A stretch of DNA of 32,396 nt, counting the filler, from Vermamoeba vermiformis (taxonomy: Eukaryota): the NCBI GenBank assembly GCA_045837725.1. It is 2 parts of 2 records of this genome, joined end to end, with 100 filler letters (N's around TTAATTAATTAA, not from the genome) between each part and the next. Parts side by side here need not be neighbours in the genome. Positions count along the whole stretch, not along the records: positions 1 to 12,903 come from JBEWZL010000303.1; 1 more part is not named here. One strand, written 5' to 3'. Numbering within the stretch: the stretch's first letter is position 1; every line of letters begins with the position of its first letter. Position numbers and translations under genes: made by a program. Below the pieces are notes generated by a model. The model was not told where the DNA came from and did not search any database. It saw nothing but the letters and a program-made list of their open reading frames with translations. Positions 374 to 26,327 of the stretch are shown one piece after another.

Positions 374-2247
374 TTAGTGTTCACACAATGAGAAAGGTCG
401 TTCCCAAATCTCTTCGTTGTTCGTGTCGAAGAAATATTTGCGTTCTTTCATCAACTCTTCGCGGTGCTTCTTTGCCACGTCAAGTGACATGGGCCAGTCA
501 TTTTGTTTCATAATAATGTCGCGGATCTCGTTGGGCAGCGTATCGAACAAAGTGTCATCGTTCTTTTCAACTTCCATTCTGAACCATTCAGCCTGTTGAG
601 GCGGGACACGTGCAGTCGACAAAACAGGAGTGGCTGGATCGACCAAAAAGAAGCAAAGAATCTTTCTGTGACCAGGCTTGGTCGGATCTGCCAACTTGAA
701 TGGCTTGACTTTGTGTTGGTACAAGTTCGGGAACACGATGCATCGGTCTTGCTCGGTCAACACACCGCCTAATGGCTGCACCAAGGCCTCTTCATTTAGC
801 AGTCCGTATATCGCTTCAACACCACGGTGATCGCCTTGTTCGTAGTCAGGCTCGCGCACAGCCAATCGGAACTCGAGCTTGGACTCGGTGATATTTTCAG
901 TGTCGTAGTAATAGATGCCAGTAGCGATGATACGCTCGTTCTCCATGCCTTCAATGTGCCAGACACCTCCATTGTATTCGGGCTTTTCAGGGGTCAAATG
1001 GATGTTGGCGAGCTTGGTGATGACTTGCACAGTTCGGCCCTTCAAATCAACGACTGTTTTGGGCTCGGGGACTCCTTCGAATGTTGGCACTTTGGGCTGG
1101 ATCGGGTCGCGGTTTTCGCGCCACTCGTAGTACTGATCATCGTCGTCAAAGTCTTCTTCAGTCTTGTCTTCTGGCGGGTACTCAATGTTGCCTGCAATGC
1201 GATTTTCACGTGGGTACAAAGCCTCTGTCAGGGTCTTATTGTAAAGGGGGATGAAACGTTCAAAGATCTGTTCAAGCGTCTTGTACAAGTCCGCGTGAAT
1301 GTGAGGGTGCAAATTGTTGATGTACGAGTCGATCTTGACTTTGCCGTCTTCTGCGATCTTGAACTCGGATGGCAACCACTGGTACTTTTCAGACTTGCCA
1401 GGCATCGGTGGACGAACGCTATGGCATCATTAATATTATTCCTATATATATTATAATGATGCACTTACACTGAGGCAGGATGAGAGAATTGTTGGAAGTG
1501 ATCCGGATTTCGGCGGTAGCAGTTGGCACCGTAGGCACAAGGAGGAAGCTTGCTGTCGTCGAACGGAGCCTCTTTTTCAACTTCACCTGCTCCCAAGAAC
1601 TCTTTCCAAGGCAAGGGTTTGCCGTCAGTCACACGACTTACGCCGTGAATGTACGGAAATAGCGACGGATGCACCAAATCCAAAACTTGATTGTTTGAAT
1701 TGGGATGCCAGTCTTTGTGCGCATCATCGACGTTCTCAAGCACAGCAACGCCTTTGAGAAGGTCTTCGCGGATTTCTTTGGGGATCAGATCGTCCGCTTG
1801 ATAAACTCCGTCGACTGGCGAAGGAACCACAACGCCGTCCACAAGTTTAAGGAAATGATTCTCGAGCTCGTCGAAAACGTACTTGATTGATTCGTCTGAA
1901 GCGCCTAATCAAAGCATTTAAGGTCAGAATTAAGTAAGAATTCGACATCCAGTTCCGGATTTACCTTGTGCTTTCGCTTCTTCCATCCATTTCTTCTTGA
2001 TCTCAGGCTTTAGAAGTTTTTCAGCCCAACCTCGCTTTTCTCTAATGCAAGCGCTCAGTTGCATCAGCTGCAATTCCACTACCGTTTTTGGTGGTGCCCC
2101 AGATTCGTAGTCTCCTTCTAAATCGAAAACGGTGGGAAAACGCTCGCTCAAAGGGTTTTTGGGGATTGTAGAAGTATCCATCTTTTGTTTCTTGGCTGCT
2201 GGTTCGTTATCAGAAGAGTCTCCGACGTGCTTTCTTTTAGGAGGCAT
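374..2247 (-). CDS. DUF4246-family (2OG-Fe(II) dioxygenase-like) protein with an inserted PBZ zinc finger; 3 exons (2247-1965, 1904-1469, 1418-374)
   Basis: GT-AG splicing joins three ORFs in frame. Motifs DWHPNSNNQVLDLVHPSLFP, YQWLPSEF, SYINNLHP, QVITKLANIHLTPEKPEY, WHIEG, FPNLYQH, GHRKILCFFLVDP and ERPFSLCEH match DUF4246. CAYGANCYRRNPDHFQQFSHP is a PBZ motif. NLS-like PPKRK..AAKKQK at the N-terminus. Confidence 0.85.
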
Positions 2248-2603: not shown

Positions 2604-5600
2604 TTATGCACCAAAGTCCATTGGTACAGGGACTACTCGGAACCGTGGCGATGAATCGACAGCAATTTTTTTGAGGGTAATTGAGGTGCAGTAAGATCTG
2701 GCCACGAACGAATAATCATTGGTTGCGGATGTCGCCATAAAAATATTCCAGAACCTAACATTAGCAAACGGATCTTTCCATTTTAGCGTGTAATCCATAT
2801 ATTCTTTTCCTGTATATTAAAAAAGAATTAGAATGCGAAGGGGTCATTTTAATGTACTGAATATATGATTCAGTATATTACCTTCGTAAATAGAGTCAGA
2901 GTGCCAATTTGTGTCAATATGAACTTCTTCCGTATCATACGGAATCTTTTCGATATGATTTCGCATTAATAGCAGTCCCAAGTAGATCTTCTGGTTCTGT
3001 TGAAATTTCGGGCGAGGACCTTGTAACGGCCAACCAATGAGCTGAAAGTGGTGGTGATACGCGACTAATTGAATTGACGTTATCGTTGCAGATAATTTTG
3101 ACAACACGAACATTCGTTGCTGCCATTCACCGTGGCTGATAGTCTTAGTAGGTTTCACTAGCGTTGTATTTGGTCGGTTTGTCGACGCGGCAACAGTGTC
3201 AGATGTCAACACAAGTGTCACTCCGGTTGACATTTTGATCAATAATGCAATATCCGCTGCTGAATTTGAATGTGATTTTTTCACGAAGTAGCTGATCTCC
3301 AATTCGTCAACGCCAGTTAAATCAAATTCGGTTCTGAACAACGTCATGCTGCTTGTTTGAAGGTCCGTTGGAATTTCAAGTTCGTTCGGCACCGAAAAAT
3401 CGACTTCAATGGCATTGCTTCCATCAAAGGCTACTTTATCCGTCAATCTGAACTGCGCTTTGTTTTCAATCACGTCGTCAAATGTCACGACAGCATCTTG
3501 GGCCAGCAAATTGTTCCAAGGCTCATCTTTCACTTTCTTTCCGTTCATGAACAGATTTGGACCACAGCCAGTATTAAATGACGTTGCAAATGGCAGTTTG
3601 TTTGGTACCGGCCTTGGCGCAATGAATCGTGAAAATTTCATGGCTGGATTAGGTTTCAAAGCGATCATCAATGACGGCGCGTCAATTTTTGTTCCATAAT
3701 GTCCGGCCCAATACTCCGCTGACTTGCCAGAATCCTCCCACACAATAAATCTCGCTCCTTTGCCGTAGTTGCTGATATGGATTGATTTTTGTTCCCACTT
3801 GTCGGTGCATTTTAATTCACCTACAACGAGTTAGGGTCAGTCTTTTAGTATCAATTGTTCATACCTGTCGAGTACTCATGTACGAGCTGTTTGTTTTCAT
3901 TCAACAGCTTGATCTTCAGGCAGTAAGGGTCGCTGAAGTCAGGTCCTGTGCCTTGTATCCATTCTGACGCTTCAATGAGCGGCTCTTCATCGAGATCTTG
4001 AGTCGTGAATCCCAACTACAAAATAATTATAAGAAGTTTAAACGAATAAACTTATCTTGCCTAATTAGGAAATTCATATTTGCAAAGACACCATGAGACG
4101 CCTGACTGCAGTTTCGATAAGTTCAAGACTTACCTTGACTAAATCAAACTCCATTTCTCGCACGCACCAATCAAAACTCGTCACGAAGACTGAAGTACGA
4201 GTCTGTTTCGGTCTGATCTCTGAACGGCTGTCATCATTTTCAAGTGCCTTCCAGCCATTGCCACCATTCTCAATAATATTCCAATCTCCTTTGTGCACTT
4301 GAAACAACTCTAAAATAACATCGCGATAAATTTTCACTCTTAAAAGTTAATTACTGCGCACCTGTAGAGTCCTTTCCGAGCCAAAATTTCTCTTCGGCAC
4401 GCAGCCATTTTGTTCTGCTAAGCGAGCCTACTTCTTCAAGGGTCCAACCTAATAAGGAAAATTAAACAATGTTTGGAAAATTCAAGAGTGTGTCGGATCT
4501 TACTTGGTGCAAAGAGTGCGTAGCTCAAGTCGTATTTTTGAATGAATTCCATGGCTAAATATGAATTAAATCCTCCTCCGCCGTATACTCCACGTCCAAA
4601 CACGTCAATACCGACATAAACATCGTGTCGTCTGTTGAACTGGTTGGCAATTTCAACCGACTTTTTCAACTTCTCGTCGTTCCATCGGTAATTCAAGAAT
4701 ATTCCGTCGCATCTAAAAATAGATTAATAAAATATTTGCAAAGTTATGGATTGCCTTTTTTACGTACTTTTCAAAGAACGCCATGTTATTCTCGTTCAGT
4801 GAATCTTGCCATTTTAGGTCACCGTGCACCGTGACACTATCGTACCATAATACGACTGAATTTTCTATTCGTTGGTGGCAGGCTATAGTCATATACTCGA
4901 CAAATTCTAGTAATTTGAAGATGTACTCAGGAGCAACTTTGCATTCGATATTAAAGAACCAGCCATCAAATCCATAATGTTCCGCAATATCAATCAACTT
5001 ATTGGCGTAGTAGAATTCATCGCCTGGCTTGCCATCGACCAGTCTTTGCAACTCTTTTTCGGCCTGTTCCCACTCGGTAATAATTGTTCCGAGTACTTTA
5101 ACTCCATTATTATGCGCAGCATTGATCCATCCAGAGGCTATGAAAGCACATTAATAAGGCTCAGTCTCATATGAACATTTGACTTACGTGGTATTGTAAT
5201 TGTGTGGTGTGAAAAATAAATAAAAGTGTCGATAAACTGCCAGTACGTGAAATTGTAAGCATGTTCTTCATTGGTGCCTTGCAAATATTTGTCGTTTAAA
5301 TAGCCGCCTAAGCAATATTACGTTAACAAACTTCCCGGCGAAAAAAATGTGACACGTGCCTTTGAGGTCATGGCAATGAATCATCTTCGGTCCAGCACGA
5401 TCTTTTCTCGGCCCTAGTGGGACCTTCAGTGCACCAACGGGACTGGGAGTCCATTTATCAAGTTCATCGATCGATCTTAACGGCTCAATGGCTAGTACTT
5501 GTGGCTCAATACCATCTGAAACACGGATTAAAAATTTAATTGATAAAAGTAAAGAGTACCTTGAGGATAATTCGGTTTTGATGACTTTGACGACTTCGGG

Positions 5601-6413
5601 ACGGTTGATAATTTAAATGAGGAGATAAATCCTTTGAAGCTTCTGTAACAACGAATTAGAACTCGATCTGGCAGTCAATCGGACCCACGACTTACCGATT
5701 ATTTTCAGCAGATTTGCCAATAAAAAATGTGTTATTAATGGGTTTTGATAAATGATCGATTTTAATTGTAGCATTAGTCTCCTCATTAACTTGGATAAAA
5801 ACCTGCTTCGATCCGAACTCAAACTCTACGCCAACAAAAGCCCTAAATATATTAAAAATAAATCATAAATACTTATTTCGTACCATTTATACAGCGGAAT
5901 CGAACTTTGGCTCTTCCATACTGTCAAAAAAATGAATTACTCCTAGATCGCGAGTGAAAAGCCTTTCTTACCTTCTTTCTGGTTGATTTTCAGTATAATT
6001 CGCTTCTCTCTGCTTAATAGCACCGCAACGTCGTATTTATTCGGAAAAGGTCCGACCGAGAAGAGAACCGCCTCGTCATCTTTAGGTACATCCAGTGGAA
6101 ATACGTGCAGTTGATAATTTAATGTATCATAAGATGTGCTAGTATTTATATTGCATTTTTGTATTAAAGATGATTGCCTAAGGGTAAATAGAGCGTTAGA
6201 AATGAATTTGAATTGATCTAAAATCCTTCTTTGCACCAAAAATTGAAATAAAAATTTTCGAATATTCAAATATAATATGGTAGCTAAAATGCAATTGATG
6301 ATATTAAGAAAATCGCGAATCTTGTGCTCTAAATATTTGGCGGCCTGCTTGTAGACCTATGTCGGCACTTACCCGTCGAAATATGTTTCGTTATGAATAA
6401 ATACGTGTTCCAT
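2604..6413 (-). CDS. ENGASE: Endo-beta-N-acetylglucosaminidase (GH85), multi-exon, with N-terminal LamG/ConA-like domain and internal FBA (Fbs1-like) domain
   Basis: Spliced reading gives HCHDLKGGY, YWQFIDTFIYFSHHTITIPP, WINAAHNNGVKVLGTIITEW, YGFDGWFFNIE (catalytic N-x-E), WYDSVTVHGDLKWQDSLN, VYVGIDVFGRG and LPFATSFNTGCG. The start at 6413 (MEHVFIHNETYFDG|QSS) is inferred from in-frame splicing. Confidence 0.88.
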
Positions 6414-6486
6414 ATGATTATTTTTGCCCTTCCACTGTGTTTGTGTAAGCAAACTAAAATTGTTATTTTCTTTTGGCAATTTCAAT

Positions 6487-7895
6487 ATGTTACGGCTCGT
6501 GCGAACATCTGCAACGGTGTTAAGAAGGTCTAAGGGCCTATCTTCATATTCAAAGCAAGCTACACGATTATTTTCTGCACAAGTGAAATTGACGAGCAGA
6601 TCGAGCAAGAATAGAGCAGTATTTGCTGCCAAGCCAACCATCAACAAATTGTCGGCAAAATTTTATAGCACAAATCAGAGTGAATCGAATAATGGCCAAA
6701 TTGCAAATAACACCACCGACACAAGGTAAATCCAAATTTTACAACATTTGTTCGAATTTTTAAAAATACTACATCACCTAGGACGTTATTAATATTACCA
6801 CATGCGATAATATCATAAATAATATTTAATTTAATTGAAGATATTATTTAAAGAAGTAAACTCACGATATTTAGTAATCTGCGCATAAAAATTCTCGAAG
6901 CCGCACTCCGTCACGTGCCTAAATATGGCTGGTCTGTTGAGATCCTCAGTAAAGCTGCCGAAGAAAATAATCTTCCGCCAATTGCACACGGTGTCGTGGA
7001 TGTACGTGACAAAAGATCCAAAGTCATCTGGCGTACCATCACTAACAATTATTCCAGGGCCCATTAGATTTAGTGCGATATTTTATTGATAAATGCAACC
7101 GTCAAATGATTGATGACTTGGAAAAGATGGAAAATTTCAACGGGTAAGTTCACGCATAAAAATCAAAAATTGCTTGAATTAATTGTAGCTCGACAAAATT
7201 GCTTGAAGTACTTCTAGGGCGACAAAATTAATTAAATATTGGTGCTGTATTACATATATTATATATACATATATTAATGTTTTGCTTTCTGCTCAGGTTG
7301 ACCTTGAAACAAAAATACAAAGAAATTATCAAGCTCCGCTTGTCGTACAATATTCCTTACATTAGTCGATGGTCCGAAGTAAGTAGCAACCATATATATA
7401 TAATACTATATATAGTATAGCACATTGTTGCTAGAATCAATTAGGCTCCAAATTGGACATGTCCTCGGTTAAACTTGTGCGCGTGTCATACTTGGCGGTG
7501 ACACGTGTCATTTACTAATTATCAATGGTCGGTATCTTATATATTATATTACACTAGGCCCTGGCCTTATTAGCACACCCCATTGCATTGCCTACTTCGC
7601 TCAAAACACTCGCGCAGCTGGCCGACGAGATCGCGTACCAGACTGGTGATGATTCCACTAACGTACGTCACTGTATACGAGTTATTTTGCTTGCCTCGGC
7701 AGATAAAACTAACAGAACATTATTATTATAGCTTGATTGGTATGCCAAGCGCGCTGCAATTACTGGCTTGTACACATCCACAGGTACCGTTTTTTAACTC
7801 TTCAGCCTTTAATTTGGCTATGTATATACGCTATCGTGCAAAGAATACGATATTGTATATTAGAGAGAACGGTTGTTGAAATTTAGATATTTAAT

Positions 7896-7927
<32 letters not shown>

Positions 7928-8179
7928 CCTTCTTTTAGGGAGTTCGTAGAGCGTCGAATTGAGGATTTGGTTTGGCTCTCAAAAGCAAAATCAAACTTGG
8001 GTACTTTAGTCTCAACCGCCGCATCTGGAGCTTTTTCGATTATCAATGGTTTGATTAATAGTAATAGTCGAGGACAAGGATACAATAGTAATTATAATAA
8101 CAATCGAGGCCAGCCTACTCATGAAAATTCTTCGCAGTCCAACAATAGTGCTGTTGATCAGCATAAGCCAACTCATTAA
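6487..8179 (+). CDS. COQ9: Ubiquinone biosynthesis protein COQ9, mitochondrial, multi-exon; one internal exon appears to be missing
   Basis: Arg/Ser-rich presequence MLRLVRTSATVLRRS; motifs KILEAALRHVPKYGWS, IKLRLSYNIPYISRWSE|ALALLAHP, LADEIAYQTGDDST, LDWYAKRAAITGLYTST and EFVERRIED. Confidence 0.85.
7896..7927 (+). repeat. Poly-T homopolymer (~32 nt) in a COQ9 intron
   Basis: Directly visible run of T just upstream of a TTTAG acceptor. Confidence 0.9.
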
Positions 8180-8502: not shown

Positions 8503-10259
8503 ATGCTTCTCAAATACGTACCTTTACTATTGTTAGTATAGCCGTTTTTATGTTGGTGTGAAGGAACCGTGTTTTTTGGAATGTTTTAAATGTTCGAAAT
8601 GATTCATTCGAGATCTACGGGTGACAGACAGGTCCCCACTGGCCAATCGCTTCACGCCTCTGCGTAGATTTCAAACGAAATCTAGATTAAGTGATTCGCG
8701 CTTGGCTCGAGCGTTCGCAGCTGCTACATCACTGTTCGCCCCAAAAGATGTGCTATCGTTGCCAATCAGAGCAAGCTACTTCAAAACACAAATGTACGAG
8801 AGACGATTGTAAATTTGGTTAGACACCGTCCAATCAACGTGCGGCTTGCTCTAATAGGCAGATCCATGTTAGGTGAGACGCATACCATCTGTTGCTGCGA
8901 TCCCCTGGCTAAGTCAACCGCTAGGTAGCAGGGGATCTGGTATCGCTGTCATGTCAGCAAGAGATTCCCCTCAGTTATCGTGAATCATTTCGAACATTTA
9001 AAAACATTTAAAAGTGTGATTTAATTCTGACCAAGATAAAAACGGCTATACTTGTACAACACAGCATTGCCGTTTATCCGGTGATCTACCAGAAAACCAC
9101 GTTCTTCACAAGCTTACCGAGAACGGGAGTAGCGGCAACATCTGCTGGAAGTTTTGCATTGTTTGCTGGTGGTATTACCAGGTTTGACAACGTTTCGGAT
9201 GTGGTGGATGTTTTCAACACTGAAACTCGTCAGTGGTCGACTGCAAAATTAAGCCAACCAAGATTAAATGCTTATACTGCGTCAGTTGGACAACTAGCTC
9301 TCTTTGCTTTTGGTGAGGTTGGAAATGTTTCCAAAACTGTTGACATTTTTGACGCAGCCAGTGGGGAGTGGTCTACGTATCCACTCTGCACTGAAGTAGC
9401 ATCAATAACCGCAACAACCTACGTTGGCAACTATACATTGTATTGGGGAGAAGCTAATAACGCAACTGTAGTTTGCCGCTTCGATCCGATCGCACATCAA
9501 TGGACAGTTAAAGAAATAGGCCCTTACCGTCACAGAGTTCCGGCTGCAGCTTCTGTTGGCAAGTACGCCCTCTTTGCTGGCGGAACGTTGGAACTTAATG
9601 GAACTACAACCAAGACCAATCTTGTTTCAATATTTGATTCAGAAACACTCCAATGGTCCACGGCAACACTTAGTCAAGCAAGATATAGTCTAGCAGCAAC
9701 TTCGACTGGTGATTATGCATTCTTTGGTGGTGGTCTTGCTTCGTCGAGTCCGCCAGCTTTCTGTGACGCAGTTGATATCTTTGATGCCAAAACTCTGACG
9801 TGGAGTGTTACTTCTTTAAGCAGACCCAAATCCTACTTAGCGGCGACTGCAGTTGGACCTTATGCGATTTTTGGCGGAGGATTCTCTCAAACTAAGAACG
9901 CCCCTGACGTGGACATCTTTGATACAACGACAAAACTCTGGACTTACGCAAACCTGGCTAGCGGGCGATACCAATTGACTGCTACTTCTGCCGGAAAATT
10001 TGCATTCTTTGCAACCGGAAATGATGATCAATCCCTGCCGTCGGGCACAATCGATCTATTCGAGTTTCCAGAATTGTCTGCAACACCAACGGCGAGCAAC
10101 ACACCTGCTATAGTCGTGCCCGTCCCTACATCTAGCACTTCGAACAGCAATGTTCCGGTTGAATCTCCTGTCACTGTTACATCAGAGGCTTCGTTGCATT
10201 CGGCATCGCTCGTTTGGGTTGCATGTCTAGGATTTTTACTCCTTAACGAGCTAATCTAA
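8503..10259 (+). CDS. Secreted, probably GPI-anchored kelch-like beta-propeller protein; signal-peptide coding region interrupted by an insertion
   Basis: Repeats of W-x-T-A-x-L-S-x-x-R-x-x-L-A-A-T-S-x-G-x-x-A-x-F-x-GG..VDIFD, an S/T/P-rich stalk and a hydrophobic C-terminus (SEASLHSASLVWVACLGFLLLNELI). ATG 8503 (MLLKYVPLLLLV) joins LVQHSIAVYPVIYQK in frame when 8539-9050 is removed. Confidence 0.75.
8539..9048. mobile_element. Non-autonomous TIR element (MITE-like, TA target duplication, Tc1/mariner-type geometry), 510 bp
   Basis: Outer inverted repeat TAGCCGTTTTTATGTTGGT (8539-8557) / ACCAAGATAAAAACGGCTA (9030-9048), one mismatch. Inner inverted repeat AATGTTTTAAATGTTCGAAATGATTCA (8580-8606) / 8981-9008. 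TA at 8537-38 and 9049-50. Excision restores the host reading frame; no transposase ORF. Confidence 0.8.
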
Positions 10260-16861: not shown

Positions 16862-18531
16862 TTATTTAGCGTTGTACCGATACAAAGAAAGTATCGATTT
16901 GGCAAGCGGTTCAAACGATTCTAAACCAGGGTAGCTAATATCGCTGAAGATTGCAGTCCATAATTCTATTGGCAATTTGCCGTACAAGTAACTACGGCCA
17001 ATAATATGAAGAACAATCGCTGTGCCTTCGTAACGCTTCTTTTGTAAGGCGAAATTTCTGTCACAGATGTCCTCGAACACACTAAGTAATTCAATTTGTA
17101 TTTTGGTCAATACAAAGTTATTTTCCACTGCTTTTGTTAAGCTTTCTATAAAATTTTCGTCTTGGTCTCTTACGACGCGTGCAACGAGAGTTTTGAGGGA
17201 ATTGTTGGTGCTAATAAGCTCGATCAAATCGTCTTGAGAAAATAATGAAGCTGTCAATGATCTAAGTGAGGTATTGCATTTCAGTATCTGGTTGAATGGC
17301 AAAGTCGTGCCCGAAATTCCGAGAACAATTTCAAAGCTTGTCAAAGTGTTGTTCGTGCTAAGTAATTTGGTGATAATTTGTGCCGTCTCTTCTGTCAACT
17401 TTCCATTTAAATACAATTTTTTGATGTTTTTGTTGTTTTGTATGATGGATCCGACATTTGCGTTTAGCAGCGGACTGAATCGTAGTGCCAAATTTGTGAG
17501 CGATTTATTCGATGCTAACGCCGTGCACAATGCGAGGCTATTCTCTTCCGCTCTATTGCATAATTTCATGTCTAGCTTCCGTAGTGTTTGAGTTGTTTGT
17601 AGGTACGTGATGAGCGCATCTGGTTCGCAGTTCAAAGTTACTTCCCAACATAAGCTTGTTAGGGTCTTATTAATCATCAAGCCTTCGACGAGTCGCGAAA
17701 GATGGTCTTTAGTGAAGATCATATTACGCAGCTGAATATCCTCGAGTGCGTAGTTGTGTTTGAGGGCCTCGCCGAGTGGTCCAATGTCGCATTCACGAAT
17801 ATCTCTGAAATTACTAGCAATGCTAAGTGACTTCAAATAATTGTTCTGCTTGAGACCTTCTCCTAGGGCAATCATTTCTTGAGGCGAATAGTTAAATGCA
17901 GACGAATGCAGAACTGTCAAAACATCGTTGCTCGCTAAGCATTTGAATAACTCCACTGCTGCATTTTCGTCGCCTGCCACTGGTAGCAATTGCGTTCTAC
18001 ATTGGTCTAAATACAGATTTGTAATCGCATTGTTTCGTGTAAGGGCTTGTCCGAGTAACTTCCACTCGTGAGATCGAGATCTTTCCAGAGAGATTTTCAA
18101 TTGTTGAATCGAAGTGTTATTTGCAATACCGTCGAATAGTGGTGCCGATTCAGCGGCTTGATGTTCTGAAAGCATTACTGAGAACTTTTTCAAAGTCGTA
18201 TTTTTGTTCAGATCTTCTCCTAAAATCACGTATCTATCATTCGTAAATTGGTACTGCTGCATATTAAGATGTATTACATTGTGGTGATTTTTGGATAATA
18301 TTTGGTGCAGCCAGTCGTCAGCTTGGGCGGCATCTGATAAATTAATAACATTGTCGTCTTCATTAATTACACCGTTCAGCTGGTTTAAATATGCGACGTG
18401 TTTCTTACAGCCATCTCCCCGTAAGATCTAATGCAATCTTTCCTTTAAGTCAATACGTTTAATCAACAAAGGAGAAGGATCCTTACTATTTTGCATCCGT
18501 CCGGCGGTAAACTTCTAAATTCAATATTCAT
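16862..18531 (-). CDS. RNI-like (ribonuclease-inhibitor/NLRC3-type) LRR protein with C-terminal F-box-like motif, copy 1 (536 aa; exons 18531-18487, 18427-16862)
   Basis: Repeats L-x-x-A-L-x-x-N-x-x-L-x-x-L-x-L; exon 1 MNIEFRSLPPDGCKI splices in phase 0 to ILRGDG; C-terminal LPIELWTAIFSDISYPG. Confidence 0.8.
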
Positions 18532-24694: not shown

Positions 24695-26327
24695 TTACAA
24701 TTTTAAGATTGATTTGGCGATAGGGCCGAACGATTCTAAACCAGGGTAGTCGATCTCGCTGAAAATTGCAATCCAAATTTCTGTTGGCAATTGCCTGAAC
24801 AATTCGCTGCGGGCAAAATTGTGGATAATTATTGCTGTATCTTCGTAACGCTGCTTTTGCAAATCGAAATTTCTGTCACAAATGTGCTTAATTTTGACGT
24901 TGGTTATGCCGCCAATCCAGCAATTAGTAAGCGTATAATTATCTTCCATCGCTTGGTCTAATTTTACGTTCCATTCTTCTGTATCGAAGAAAATCAAGTC
25001 AACTACCAGCCGTTTCAATTTTTTGCCATTTTTAACTATTTCAATCATTTCTTCGTAAGGTAGGAAAGGTATGCATAGTTCTTTTAGCGTAGTATTGTAC
25101 TTAAAAATTTCTCTGTAGCCTAGGTCGACGTTCGCACGTAGATCTAAACTCGTCAATGTCTTGTTCACTATTAATGTTTCTTTCAAAGCTTGAACGGAAT
25201 CTTCTTCCAATTTCGCGTAAATTTGAAGTAGTTTGATATTTTTGTTGTCTTTTAGTGAGCCAATACTTGTGGTTCGTAATTCAGATCCGGCAATTTTCAA
25301 AATCGTGATTGATGTGTTCGCTGCTAATGCCGGGAATATTGCTTGTTCAATTTCTTCTGTAATTTTTGTGATCGTTAGATCTAATTCTGATAAAGTTTGA
25401 GTTGTTCGGAGGTACTTCAAGAGCGGATCCATTGAGCAGTCTAAGTCCACTTTCCAGACCAAATTAGTTATTGAACGATTGACTATAAGACCATCGAATA
25501 ATCTTTGCAAATGTTCGTTCGTCAATTTGATGGCCAATAACGTTAGTTTTTTGATCGTTTTGTTGTGCTTTAGTGCATCGCCAAGTGGTCCAATTTCATG
25601 CTCGCGTATGTTCCTGTAATTACCGACTATATTGAGAACATTTAACGATGTATTGTGCTTGAGACCTTCTCCTAAAGCAATCAGTTCTTGGGCCGAAAAG
25701 TTAATTTTTAACAGGTGCAGATCCGTCAAAACATCGTTGCTCGCGAGACTATCAAACAAATCCACAAGGACATTTTCCCGTGGTTCTGGTTCTATTAGCG
25801 GAAGTTCTATAATTTGCAATCGTTTGATCGATTTGTTGAGCGTTAATAATTTGCCAAGACTTTTCCAAGTTGAAGTAAGAGATCTTGGTAAGGAAACATG
25901 CAACTCCTCTATTGAAGTATTGATCGCGATCCCATCAAAGAATAGTGTCGTATCTGCGCGATGAGCTGCAGGAAATAGGATGTCGAGTTGTTTCAAAGTT
26001 GAATTTTTGGTCAGATCTTCTCCCAAAGTTCTGTACCCATCATTTGAAAATTCATAATGACGTAAAATGAGCTTTGCAATATTTTCCTGATTTTTTTGTA
26101 ATATGTGGTGAAGCCAGTCGTCGGCAAGTGCCACATCCGAAAATTCAACCTCATTATTTGTTTCAGCGACTCCTCCAAGTTGTTTCAAATGCTGATAGTG
26201 TGCCTCCCAGTCTTCATCGCCGCGAAACAACTCGGGGATTGTGGTTAATTATTTTACAAACGTTTCTGAACTTCGATTTGCTTACTATTTTTGTTCCAAT
26301 GCTGCATTTTCCAATTTCAACGTTCAT
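24695..26327 (-). CDS. RNI-like LRR protein with C-terminal F-box-like motif, copy 2 (525 aa; exons 26327-26286, 26230-24695)
   Basis: Paralogue of 16862-18531 (shared ADDWLH, LASNDVLT, IGPLGxALKHN, ICDRNFxLQKxRYE, LPxExWxAIFSxIxYPGLESF), with the same first-intron position. Confidence 0.8.

Follow-up and report, generated by a model that had tools for sequence, protein, structure and literature searches.

An FBA domain inserted in the GH85 endo-β-N-acetylglucosaminidase of Vermamoeba vermiformis, an enzyme architecture shared by many protists

We have analysed a stretch of 32,396 nucleotides from Vermamoeba vermiformis, made of two joined parts and called the window below, which holds a gene for an endo-β-N-acetylglucosaminidase (ENGase) of family GH85. 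The encoded protein has a putative LamG-like domain, a GH85 barrel, an FBA domain (PF04300) of about 165 amino acids within the C-terminal tail of the barrel, and the GH85 beta-domains, in that order. An earlier, sequence-only reading had placed an FBA domain inside a GH85 ENGase at 3670..4300, and this is borne out by a model of 14 exons, by colinear Pfam FBA matches and by GH85 sequence that resumes in exon 13; the insert was found at about 4309-3660, and the peptides quoted for it lie in exons 11, 12 and 13. The architecture is a widespread protist type, whose parts are known and whose combination is visible in automatic annotation, and it is more general and less specific to Fbs1 than had been supposed.

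The ENGase gene occupies 6413-2604 on the minus strand, and its joined coding exons give 975 amino acids with no internal stop. Twelve of the introns are GT-AG and one is GC-AG (5359-5308, minus), with sizes of 41-195 nt; the GC-AG intron was accepted because both the reading frame and the GH85 homology require it. The model is least secure at exon 1 and the start codon. A pseudogene was considered and rejected. The genome is compact (43 Mb) and intron-rich, and exon-wise searches of it, which give lower bounds, detected a single GH85 locus and no FBA match beyond the ENGase insert. By hydropathy the protein has no signal peptide and no clear membrane helix. The exons and domains are as follows, all on the minus strand:

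6413-6373, 6177-5972, 5920-5884, 5842-5696 and 5642-5560, minus: exons 1-5
5515-5360 (GC donor), 5307-5188, 5137-4768, 4712-4504 and 4448-4362, minus: exons 6-10
4309-4134, 4015-3865, 3820-2882 and 2809-2604, minus: exons 11-14
5600..6177, minus: putative N-terminal LamG/concanavalin-A-like domain, about residues 15-160, of which 79-156 were aligned
4362..5515, minus: GH85 TIM-barrel before the insertion point, exons 6-10, about residues 172-485 (PF03644)
4944..4952, minus: catalytic N326-x-E328, equivalent to Endo-A N171/E173
4134..4309, minus: FBA insert in exon 11, residues 486-544, with F531 (equivalent to Fbs1 F177) at 4175-4173
3865..4015, minus: FBA insert in exon 12, residues 545-594, with the G566-x-x-P569-x-x-x-D573 loop at 3952-3929
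3660..3820, minus: FBA insert at the start of exon 13, residues 595-648, with E630, Y631 (3713-3711) and W632 (3710-3708)
2604..3659, minus: resumed GH85, the tail of domain 1 and two C-terminal beta-domains, residues 649-975

The sequence-only reading had proposed a check with GH85 and FBA profiles, and both families were recovered. The Pfam scan was taken exon by exon and covered 12 of the 14 exons, all but the two shortest. PF03644 matched exon 7 (E 1e-11, 44.9 bits), exon 8 (9e-45, 154 bits) and exon 9 (6e-22, 78.9 bits), well above its cut-off of 22.2 bits. PF04300, a profile of 175 positions, matched exon 11 with positions 22-67 (E 6e-7, 29.9 bits), exon 12 with 80-117 (E 0.009, 16.2 bits) and exon 13 with 129-172 (E 1.2e-6, 28.9 bits). 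Each of these matches is singly below the cut-off of 32.4 bits, but together they span 22-172 and sum to 75 bits, and since three matches to one family follow in colinear order they are not due to chance. Full-length homologues with the same fusion exceed the FBA cut-off, e.g. with 77.5, 73.2 and 94 bits. When exons were compared with single proteins, exon 11 matched Fbs1 (E 2e-4), residues 3-54 of exon 13 matched FBXO44, Fbs1 and Fbs2 (E 6e-6 to 8e-4), and residues 65-142 of the same exon matched Endo-A 344-422 (E 4e-5), with matches to Endo-D and Endo-HS too. A single exon, in other words, encodes both the final third of the FBA domain and the GH85 sequence that follows it.

The residues N326, E328 and Y362 are intact and correspond, in an alignment through a homologue, to N171, E173 and Y205 of Endo-A, which are catalytic in that enzyme (PMC2646837). 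The N-x-E motif is kept in all 41 of the insert-bearing proteins that cover the site. No F-box was matched in the 12 scanned exons or in any full-length fusion homologue scanned, and the possibility that this is an F-box protein was rejected. The N-terminal domain, which the sequence-only reading did not mention, gave no Pfam match exon by exon. Against a profile made of the N-termini of five homologues that Pfam assigns to Laminin_G_3 (PF13385) it scored 15.6 bits (E 8e-7, half of the domain aligned), while the best of 200 shuffles scored 6.5. At E <1e-4 this profile matched 10 of 37 fusion N-termini (that of the window included, the five seeds excluded) and none of 52 non-fusion N-termini; Balamuthia, Diphylleia and other fusion proteins also have it, and the LamG-like domain accompanies the FBA insert.

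The structure prediction that had been suggested was made for a homologue from Arcella (779 residues) and not for the window protein itself, and this model superposes on both Endo-A and Fbs1. The AlphaFold model (pLDDT 85, pTM 0.87) aligns with Endo-A over 541 residues, spanning model residues 1-775 (Z 35.5, 2.5 A), and its residues 296-454 align with the sugar-binding domain of Fbs1 (2e31) over 154 residues (Z 20.9, 1.7 A); the insert is also similar to FBXO44 (Z 16.9, 2.6 A). The FBA insert is thus predicted to be a self-contained, ten-stranded beta-sandwich module on an undisturbed GH85 core. It is the Arcella model that has the three-domain fold of Endo-A, and the window protein is tied to this fold by the match of exon 13 to Endo-A 344-422. 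In a second model, which included the N-terminus, pLDDT was mostly <60 for residues 1-120. In Endo-A terms the insertion site lies between about 326 and 344-351; domain 1 of Endo-A extends to residue 350 (PMC2646837) and so contains it. The insertion is always found between the last F-W-x-G motif of the barrel and a P-F-x-T-x-F motif (59 insert rows), and the spacer between barrel and tail has a median of 186 residues with the insert (59 rows) and 4 residues without it (118 rows). These 177 GH85 rows, all with both flanks, are biased to fusions and include near-duplicates, and 59/177 is not a prevalence.

That the FBA exons belong to the ENGase mRNA was a check named in the sequence-only reading, and it holds for the splice between barrel and insert. 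The RNA data are three runs of low depth from a related organism with 48, 28 and 59 reads, mostly <90% alike, and no spliced joint is tabulated as such in them. Seven reads of run X2 end at 4362, and their loose letters match 4280-4309 at 27 of 30 bases; the last barrel exon is therefore spliced to the first FBA exon. Four reads of run X4 support the junction of exons 13 and 14, with loose letters matching at 15 of 17. The 11 of 18 loose read ends that were listed include neither junction 11-12 nor junction 12-13, and five reads of run X4 continue into sequence like that of intron 11, being unspliced or having retained it. Retention of this intron would end translation after one third of the FBA domain. 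These two observations, and the fact that exons 11 and 12 (327 nt together) could be skipped in frame, are what favours an artefact, in which the FBA exons would come from a nested or mis-joined gene and not from the ENGase. We regard this as very improbable and in practice refuted, given the 10-11 splice reads, exon 13 with both the end of the FBA domain and the GH85 tail, and the recurrence of the same fusion in independent transcriptome assemblies of Copromyxa, Arcella, Rhizamoeba and Diphylleia. Among five metagenome loci, four are free FBA domains and one (L006) has the fusion in an intron-free frame, which also counts against an artefact. Intron 11 (4016-4133, 118 nt) is the longest internal intron of the gene.

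The same insert at the same site was found in 14 named protist species from four supergroups, Amoebozoa, CRuMs, Discoba and SAR, and a lineage-specific novelty is thereby rejected. The carriers in Amoebozoa are Arcella, Copromyxa, Rhizamoeba, Cavenderia, Heterostelium, Acytostelium, Dictyostelium discoideum, D. purpureum and Balamuthia, and the others are Diphylleia (CRuMs), Naegleria fowleri and Willaertia (Discoba), Amorphochlora (Rhizaria) and Tetrahymena utriculariae (Alveolata). Six of the lineages were checked. Four of the 14 rest on a custom FBA profile that was seeded with the window protein: Amorphochlora (2e-20), Tetrahymena (4e-6) and the two Dictyostelium species (4e-12 and 6e-13). 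The Pfam FBA profile gave E 0.004 for Amorphochlora and no match for Tetrahymena, D. discoideum or D. purpureum; the Trp-loop motif is plainly present in Tetrahymena and Amorphochlora. The suggestion that typical ENGases lack an FBA domain is correct for animals, plants and fungi, where none of 88 named rows (42, 37 and 9, respectively) has the insert, but it does not extend to these protists.

The distribution comes from several searches. One with the barrel exon gave 32 proteins, six of them with a precomputed FBA annotation and the top two among these six; another, with a profile of 21 fusion proteins, gave 387 matches at E 1e-100, with FBA (custom profile) in 30 of the 120 listed; further carriers were gathered by a HMMER search with exon 13. 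A word-index search of exon 13 against longer proteins found none in 2109 candidates, although the barrel-exon and HMMER searches did match, and a search of the ESM Atlas gave only clusters scoring <0.9. UniRef has automatically labelled two members, Arcella A0A6B2KYC7 and Naegleria A0A6A5ATW8, as "FBA domain-containing protein", and other members in the databases are Cavenderia F4Q2G8, Heterostelium D3BCG8 and D. discoideum DDB_G0268520. The sequence-only reading would have been overturned by a fusion that was both widespread and already characterised. Widespread it is, but a literature search on titles and abstract openings, with little subscription content, found no paper that describes it.

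Fbs1 holds chitobiose by means of F177, Y279 and W280. FBXO44 has equivalents of all three, and yet its loop network, in which the beta5-beta6 loop is pivotal, keeps it from binding sugar (PMC4603797); the beta2-beta3, beta5-beta6 and beta7-beta8 loops make up the pocket in Fbs1 but not in FBXO44. The window protein has the full triad, as F531, Y631 and W632 align with the three Fbs1 residues (numbering from 2e31). The sequence-only reading was thus right about the Phe and Tyr-Trp residues of this protein, but they are not a trait of the family, and as a sign of sugar binding they are weakened by FBXO44. For conservation we used 44 inserts, the window's included, obtained from the 59 by dropping 18 near-duplicates by hand and adding three partial proteins. 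The equivalent of W280 is conserved in 42 of the 44, and that of F177 is H in 18, F in 10, Y in 8 and S in 5 (H, F or Y in 36/44). Strongly kept are also E630 (41/44), D628 (39/44, Ser in the window protein), G634 and G637 (42/44), and in another loop G566 (40/44), P569 (42/44) and D573 (41/44). This G566-x-x-P569-x-x-x-D573 stretch corresponds to the beta5-beta6 loop of Fbs1 and is one residue longer; in the window protein it is unlike both Fbs1 and FBXO44, and the beta2-beta3 loop is variable or deleted in the inserts. The three loops by which the Fbs1 pocket is formed hold all nine of the best-conserved insert columns, and mean conservation is 0.63 in the 28 loop columns and 0.34 in the other 132.

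We lean towards the FBA insert being an accessory module that binds the core of N-glycans, as homology and the predicted structure suggest, and the substrate capture proposed in the sequence-only reading is still the favoured hypothesis. The protein would then be a LamG-GH85(FBA) ENGase of an old protist type acting in the cytosol. Since the catalytic residues are intact, the barrel presumably cleaves N-glycans at their GlcNAc-GlcNAc bond through the usual substrate-assisted catalysis, while the FBA domain, as a separate beta-sandwich beside a GH85 core that the model predicts to be undisturbed, could act like a carbohydrate-binding module. Its conserved loops with Trp, Glu and Asp would take hold of high-mannose N-glycans by their inner core, whether these are carried by unfolded glycoproteins after retro-translocation or have been set free by PNGase, and so raise the local substrate concentration. 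Since the chitobiose would be required by the pocket as well as by the active site, the most probable course is that the FBA domain would bind a second glycan or pass the substrate on, and would let go on cleavage, as the product is then one GlcNAc short. The specificity of the insert probably differs in detail from that of Fbs1, given that Tyr279 is usually replaced and that a conserved Glu stands beside the Trp.

Glycan binding is favoured by the fold of the Arcella model, by the conservation of the pocket loops and of the Trp, by the full triad of the window protein, by an insert kept at one site over four supergroups beside an intact active site, by the missing signal peptide, and by a genome with a cytosolic PNGase and no other FBA match. 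It also agrees with what is reported of the proteins concerned. Fbs1 and Fbs2 bind the Man3GlcNAc2 core, which is exposed on denatured glycoproteins, their preferred ligands (PMC6389600), ENGase acts on free glycans and, when NGLY1 is absent, on cytosolic glycoproteins, and Ngly1-null mice are rescued by the loss of either Engase or Fbs2 (PMC8997433). The PNGase gene, L011 (G000:C163:63574-66705), has the catalytic Cys, His and Asp motifs. A scan of the genome for the PAW domain of PNGase gave no match, but its control matched nowhere either.

A number of observations weigh against glycan binding. The ENGases of animals, plants and fungi function without any insert, and in D. discoideum and D. 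purpureum (P0244, P0217 and P0212) the sandwich is kept while the Trp loop is gone. The equivalent of Y279 is Tyr in only 7 of the 44 inserts (N 13, G 7, H 6), that of K281 is Lys in 2/44, and the full Fbs1 triad is present in 6/44, whereas FBXO44 retains the triad without binding sugar; the beta5-beta6 loop, decisive in FBXO44, differs in the inserts. The limits of the pocket loops were moreover drawn after the alignment had been seen, and most of the columns in question recur in free FBA domains (123 domains of 66 proteins), so that part of the signal may be the fold. For the same reason the insert seems closer to a broader, mobile FBA module than to the animal Fbs proteins. Many of the free domains share a protein with bacterial domains of secretion or adhesin type (44 scanned). 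They are often in tandem and occur, with no F-box, beside T9SS (type IX secretion system) tails, DUF4347, cadherin-like, RTX, PA14, astacin and phospholipase D domains, e.g. in P0036, P0045, P0055, P0064, P0085, P0097, P0147, P0178 and others. The Dictyostelium row P0212 also lacks the middle of the insert, possibly by an error in the gene model.

One explanation of these observations is that the insert is like FBXO44, an FBA fold that binds no glycan and serves as a structural or docking module, with its conserved loops packed on the barrel or binding a protein partner such as the machinery for ERAD (degradation associated with the endoplasmic reticulum) or the proteasome. The frequent loss of the Tyr279 equivalent and the precedent of FBXO44 itself (PMC4603797) would fit this, as would the C-terminal third, whose best match is FBXO44, tied with an Fbs1 loop mutant (5b4n). 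The Pro of the G-x-x-P loop is found in 42 of 44 inserts and 21 of 123 free domains, as expected for an interface with the enzyme, and the high pTM of the Arcella model suggests a fixed orientation. An exposed Trp and acidic residues kept over four supergroups fit a sugar site, however, and the model insert is closer to Fbs1 than to FBXO44, although AlphaFold may lean on solved structures; on balance we find a module of this kind rather unlikely. In our opinion improbable too is a lectin of another specificity or purpose, which could bind the product (Man-GlcNAc1), complete the subsites and set the substrate range, or recognise glycans from prey in phagotrophic cells, in the manner of the FBA modules of secreted bacterial proteins. 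Here it counts that the motif D-x-E-x-W-x-G-H-[YF]-G is common to the free FBA domains (E in 79/123, H in 63/123) and unlike the Fbs1 motif, that many free domains stand beside T9SS tails or beside cadherin-like, PA14 or lectin domains, that a second domain of lectin fold, LamG, travels with the insert, and that the named carriers are phagotrophs or mixotrophs. By hydropathy there is on the other hand no signal peptide, the window protein has the complete Fbs1 triad, and we know of no ligand for FBA domains of the bacterial type, a literature search having found nothing relevant.

The barrel, the N-x-E motif with its Tyr and both C-terminal beta-domains are common to the window protein, Endo-A of Arthrobacter (PDB 3fha, 3fhq and 2vtf), Endo-D and the cytosolic ENGASE of animals and plants. 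Where Endo-A has a stretch of about 20 residues the window protein has the FBA domain, and it adds the putative LamG-like domain at the N-terminus. With Fbs1/FBXO2, Fbs2/FBXO6 and FBG3/FBXO44 (PF04300) it shares the fold, as seen in the homologue model, and the colinear profile match, and with Fbs1 the equivalents of F177, Y279 and W280. Lys281 of Fbs1 is however Ala, Val278 is the conserved Glu, and the beta5-beta6 loop reads G-T-G-P-x-x-x-D. The Fbs proteins are subunits of SCF ubiquitin ligases and have an F-box, whereas the window protein has none and is not part of an SCF. From the protist GH85-FBA proteins in the databases, with the same architecture and insertion site, it has no essential difference and is simply a member. 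NGLY1/PNGase with its PAW domain is likewise a cytosolic deglycosylase with a glycan-binding beta-domain for high-mannose substrates (PMC8997433), but its catalytic family and its binding fold are others, and PAW is appended where the FBA domain is inserted.

What is known of cytosolic ENGase comes, to our knowledge, almost entirely from animals and plants and from a handful of fungi, in which it has no dedicated substrate sensor. The protein described here represents a second ENGase architecture, present in four supergroups, which carries the fold that ubiquitin ligases of animals use to spot misfolded glycoproteins. Should the FBA domain bind the glycan core, it would offer a testable model for how an ENGase selects its glycoprotein substrates and a possible source from which the Fbs lectins arose, and glyco-engineering would gain natural fusions of an ENGase with a lectin. 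The insert of Dictyostelium, without the Trp loop that sister genera have, is a natural control.

That four supergroups share one insertion site speaks for a single, old insertion, and the trees agree with this without proving it. In a quick tree of FBA domains the inserts are not one clade, but with 27 of them held together the constrained tree scored higher than the quick free one by 19.5 log-units (p-AU, of the approximately unbiased test, 0.75), and a single clade of inserts is not rejected; this comparison omitted 30 of 85 rows, most of them long branches or near-copies. The backbone of the GH85 barrel tree is unresolved. In it the insert-less enzymes of animals and plants are one well-supported group (100/97) with the fungal enzymes apart, and a single clade made of the 20 barrels that bear the insert is not rejected (p-AU 0.21), so that an ancestral insert later lost and one paralogous clade that spread or was differentially kept both stand. 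The window protein has no supported sister in the trees, and we claim for it only a protist origin. FBA domains of the animal type are one group (100) in a polytomy with the inserts, which neither shows nor excludes that they descend from an insert. We hold it doubtful, but worth stating, that LamG-GH85(FBA) is the ancestral eukaryotic ENGase, that the insert was later lost from the enzymes of animals, plants and fungi, and that the Fbs glycan reader of animals derives from it. If so, the deglycosylase once had its own sensor of misfolded glycoproteins, and a reader (Fbs2) and an eraser (ENGASE), both suppressors of NGLY1 deficiency in mice, were once one protein.

A COQ9 gene (6480-8000, plus strand, with a COQ9_N match) lies head to head with the ENGase gene, and the modelled start codons are about 70 bases apart; this spacing points to a bidirectional promoter used by both genes or to an ENGase that is shorter at its 5' end. 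At 374-2247 (minus) there is a DUF4246 gene with a PBZ finger (zf-CCHH, of the poly-ADP-ribose-binding type) N-terminal to DUF4246, and at 9012-10259 (plus) a Kelch-repeat protein, with a C-terminus that is hydrophobic and rich in Ser, Thr and Pro, that resembles a surface protein anchored by glycosylphosphatidylinositol. Between 13200 and 31200 (plus) at least four copies of a multi-exon gene stand in tandem. They encode an N-terminal domain of about 150 residues (13204, 19015, 22188 and 28674), for which no Pfam, PDB or Atlas match was found, followed by a Peptidase_S74 autocleavage domain, a coiled coil, a membrane helix and an ectodomain of leucine-rich repeats (LRR). This layout recalls the self-cleaving, membrane-tethered factors MYRF/MrfA, here with an LRR sensor. 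There are 102 Peptidase_S74 matches in the genome, many of them clustered, and the tandem genes are possibly an expanded receptor family. Interleaved in the array on the opposite strand are two related single-exon genes of about 520 residues (16862-18427 and 24695-26248, minus), which have no Pfam match and are LRR-like, of RNI type by eye.

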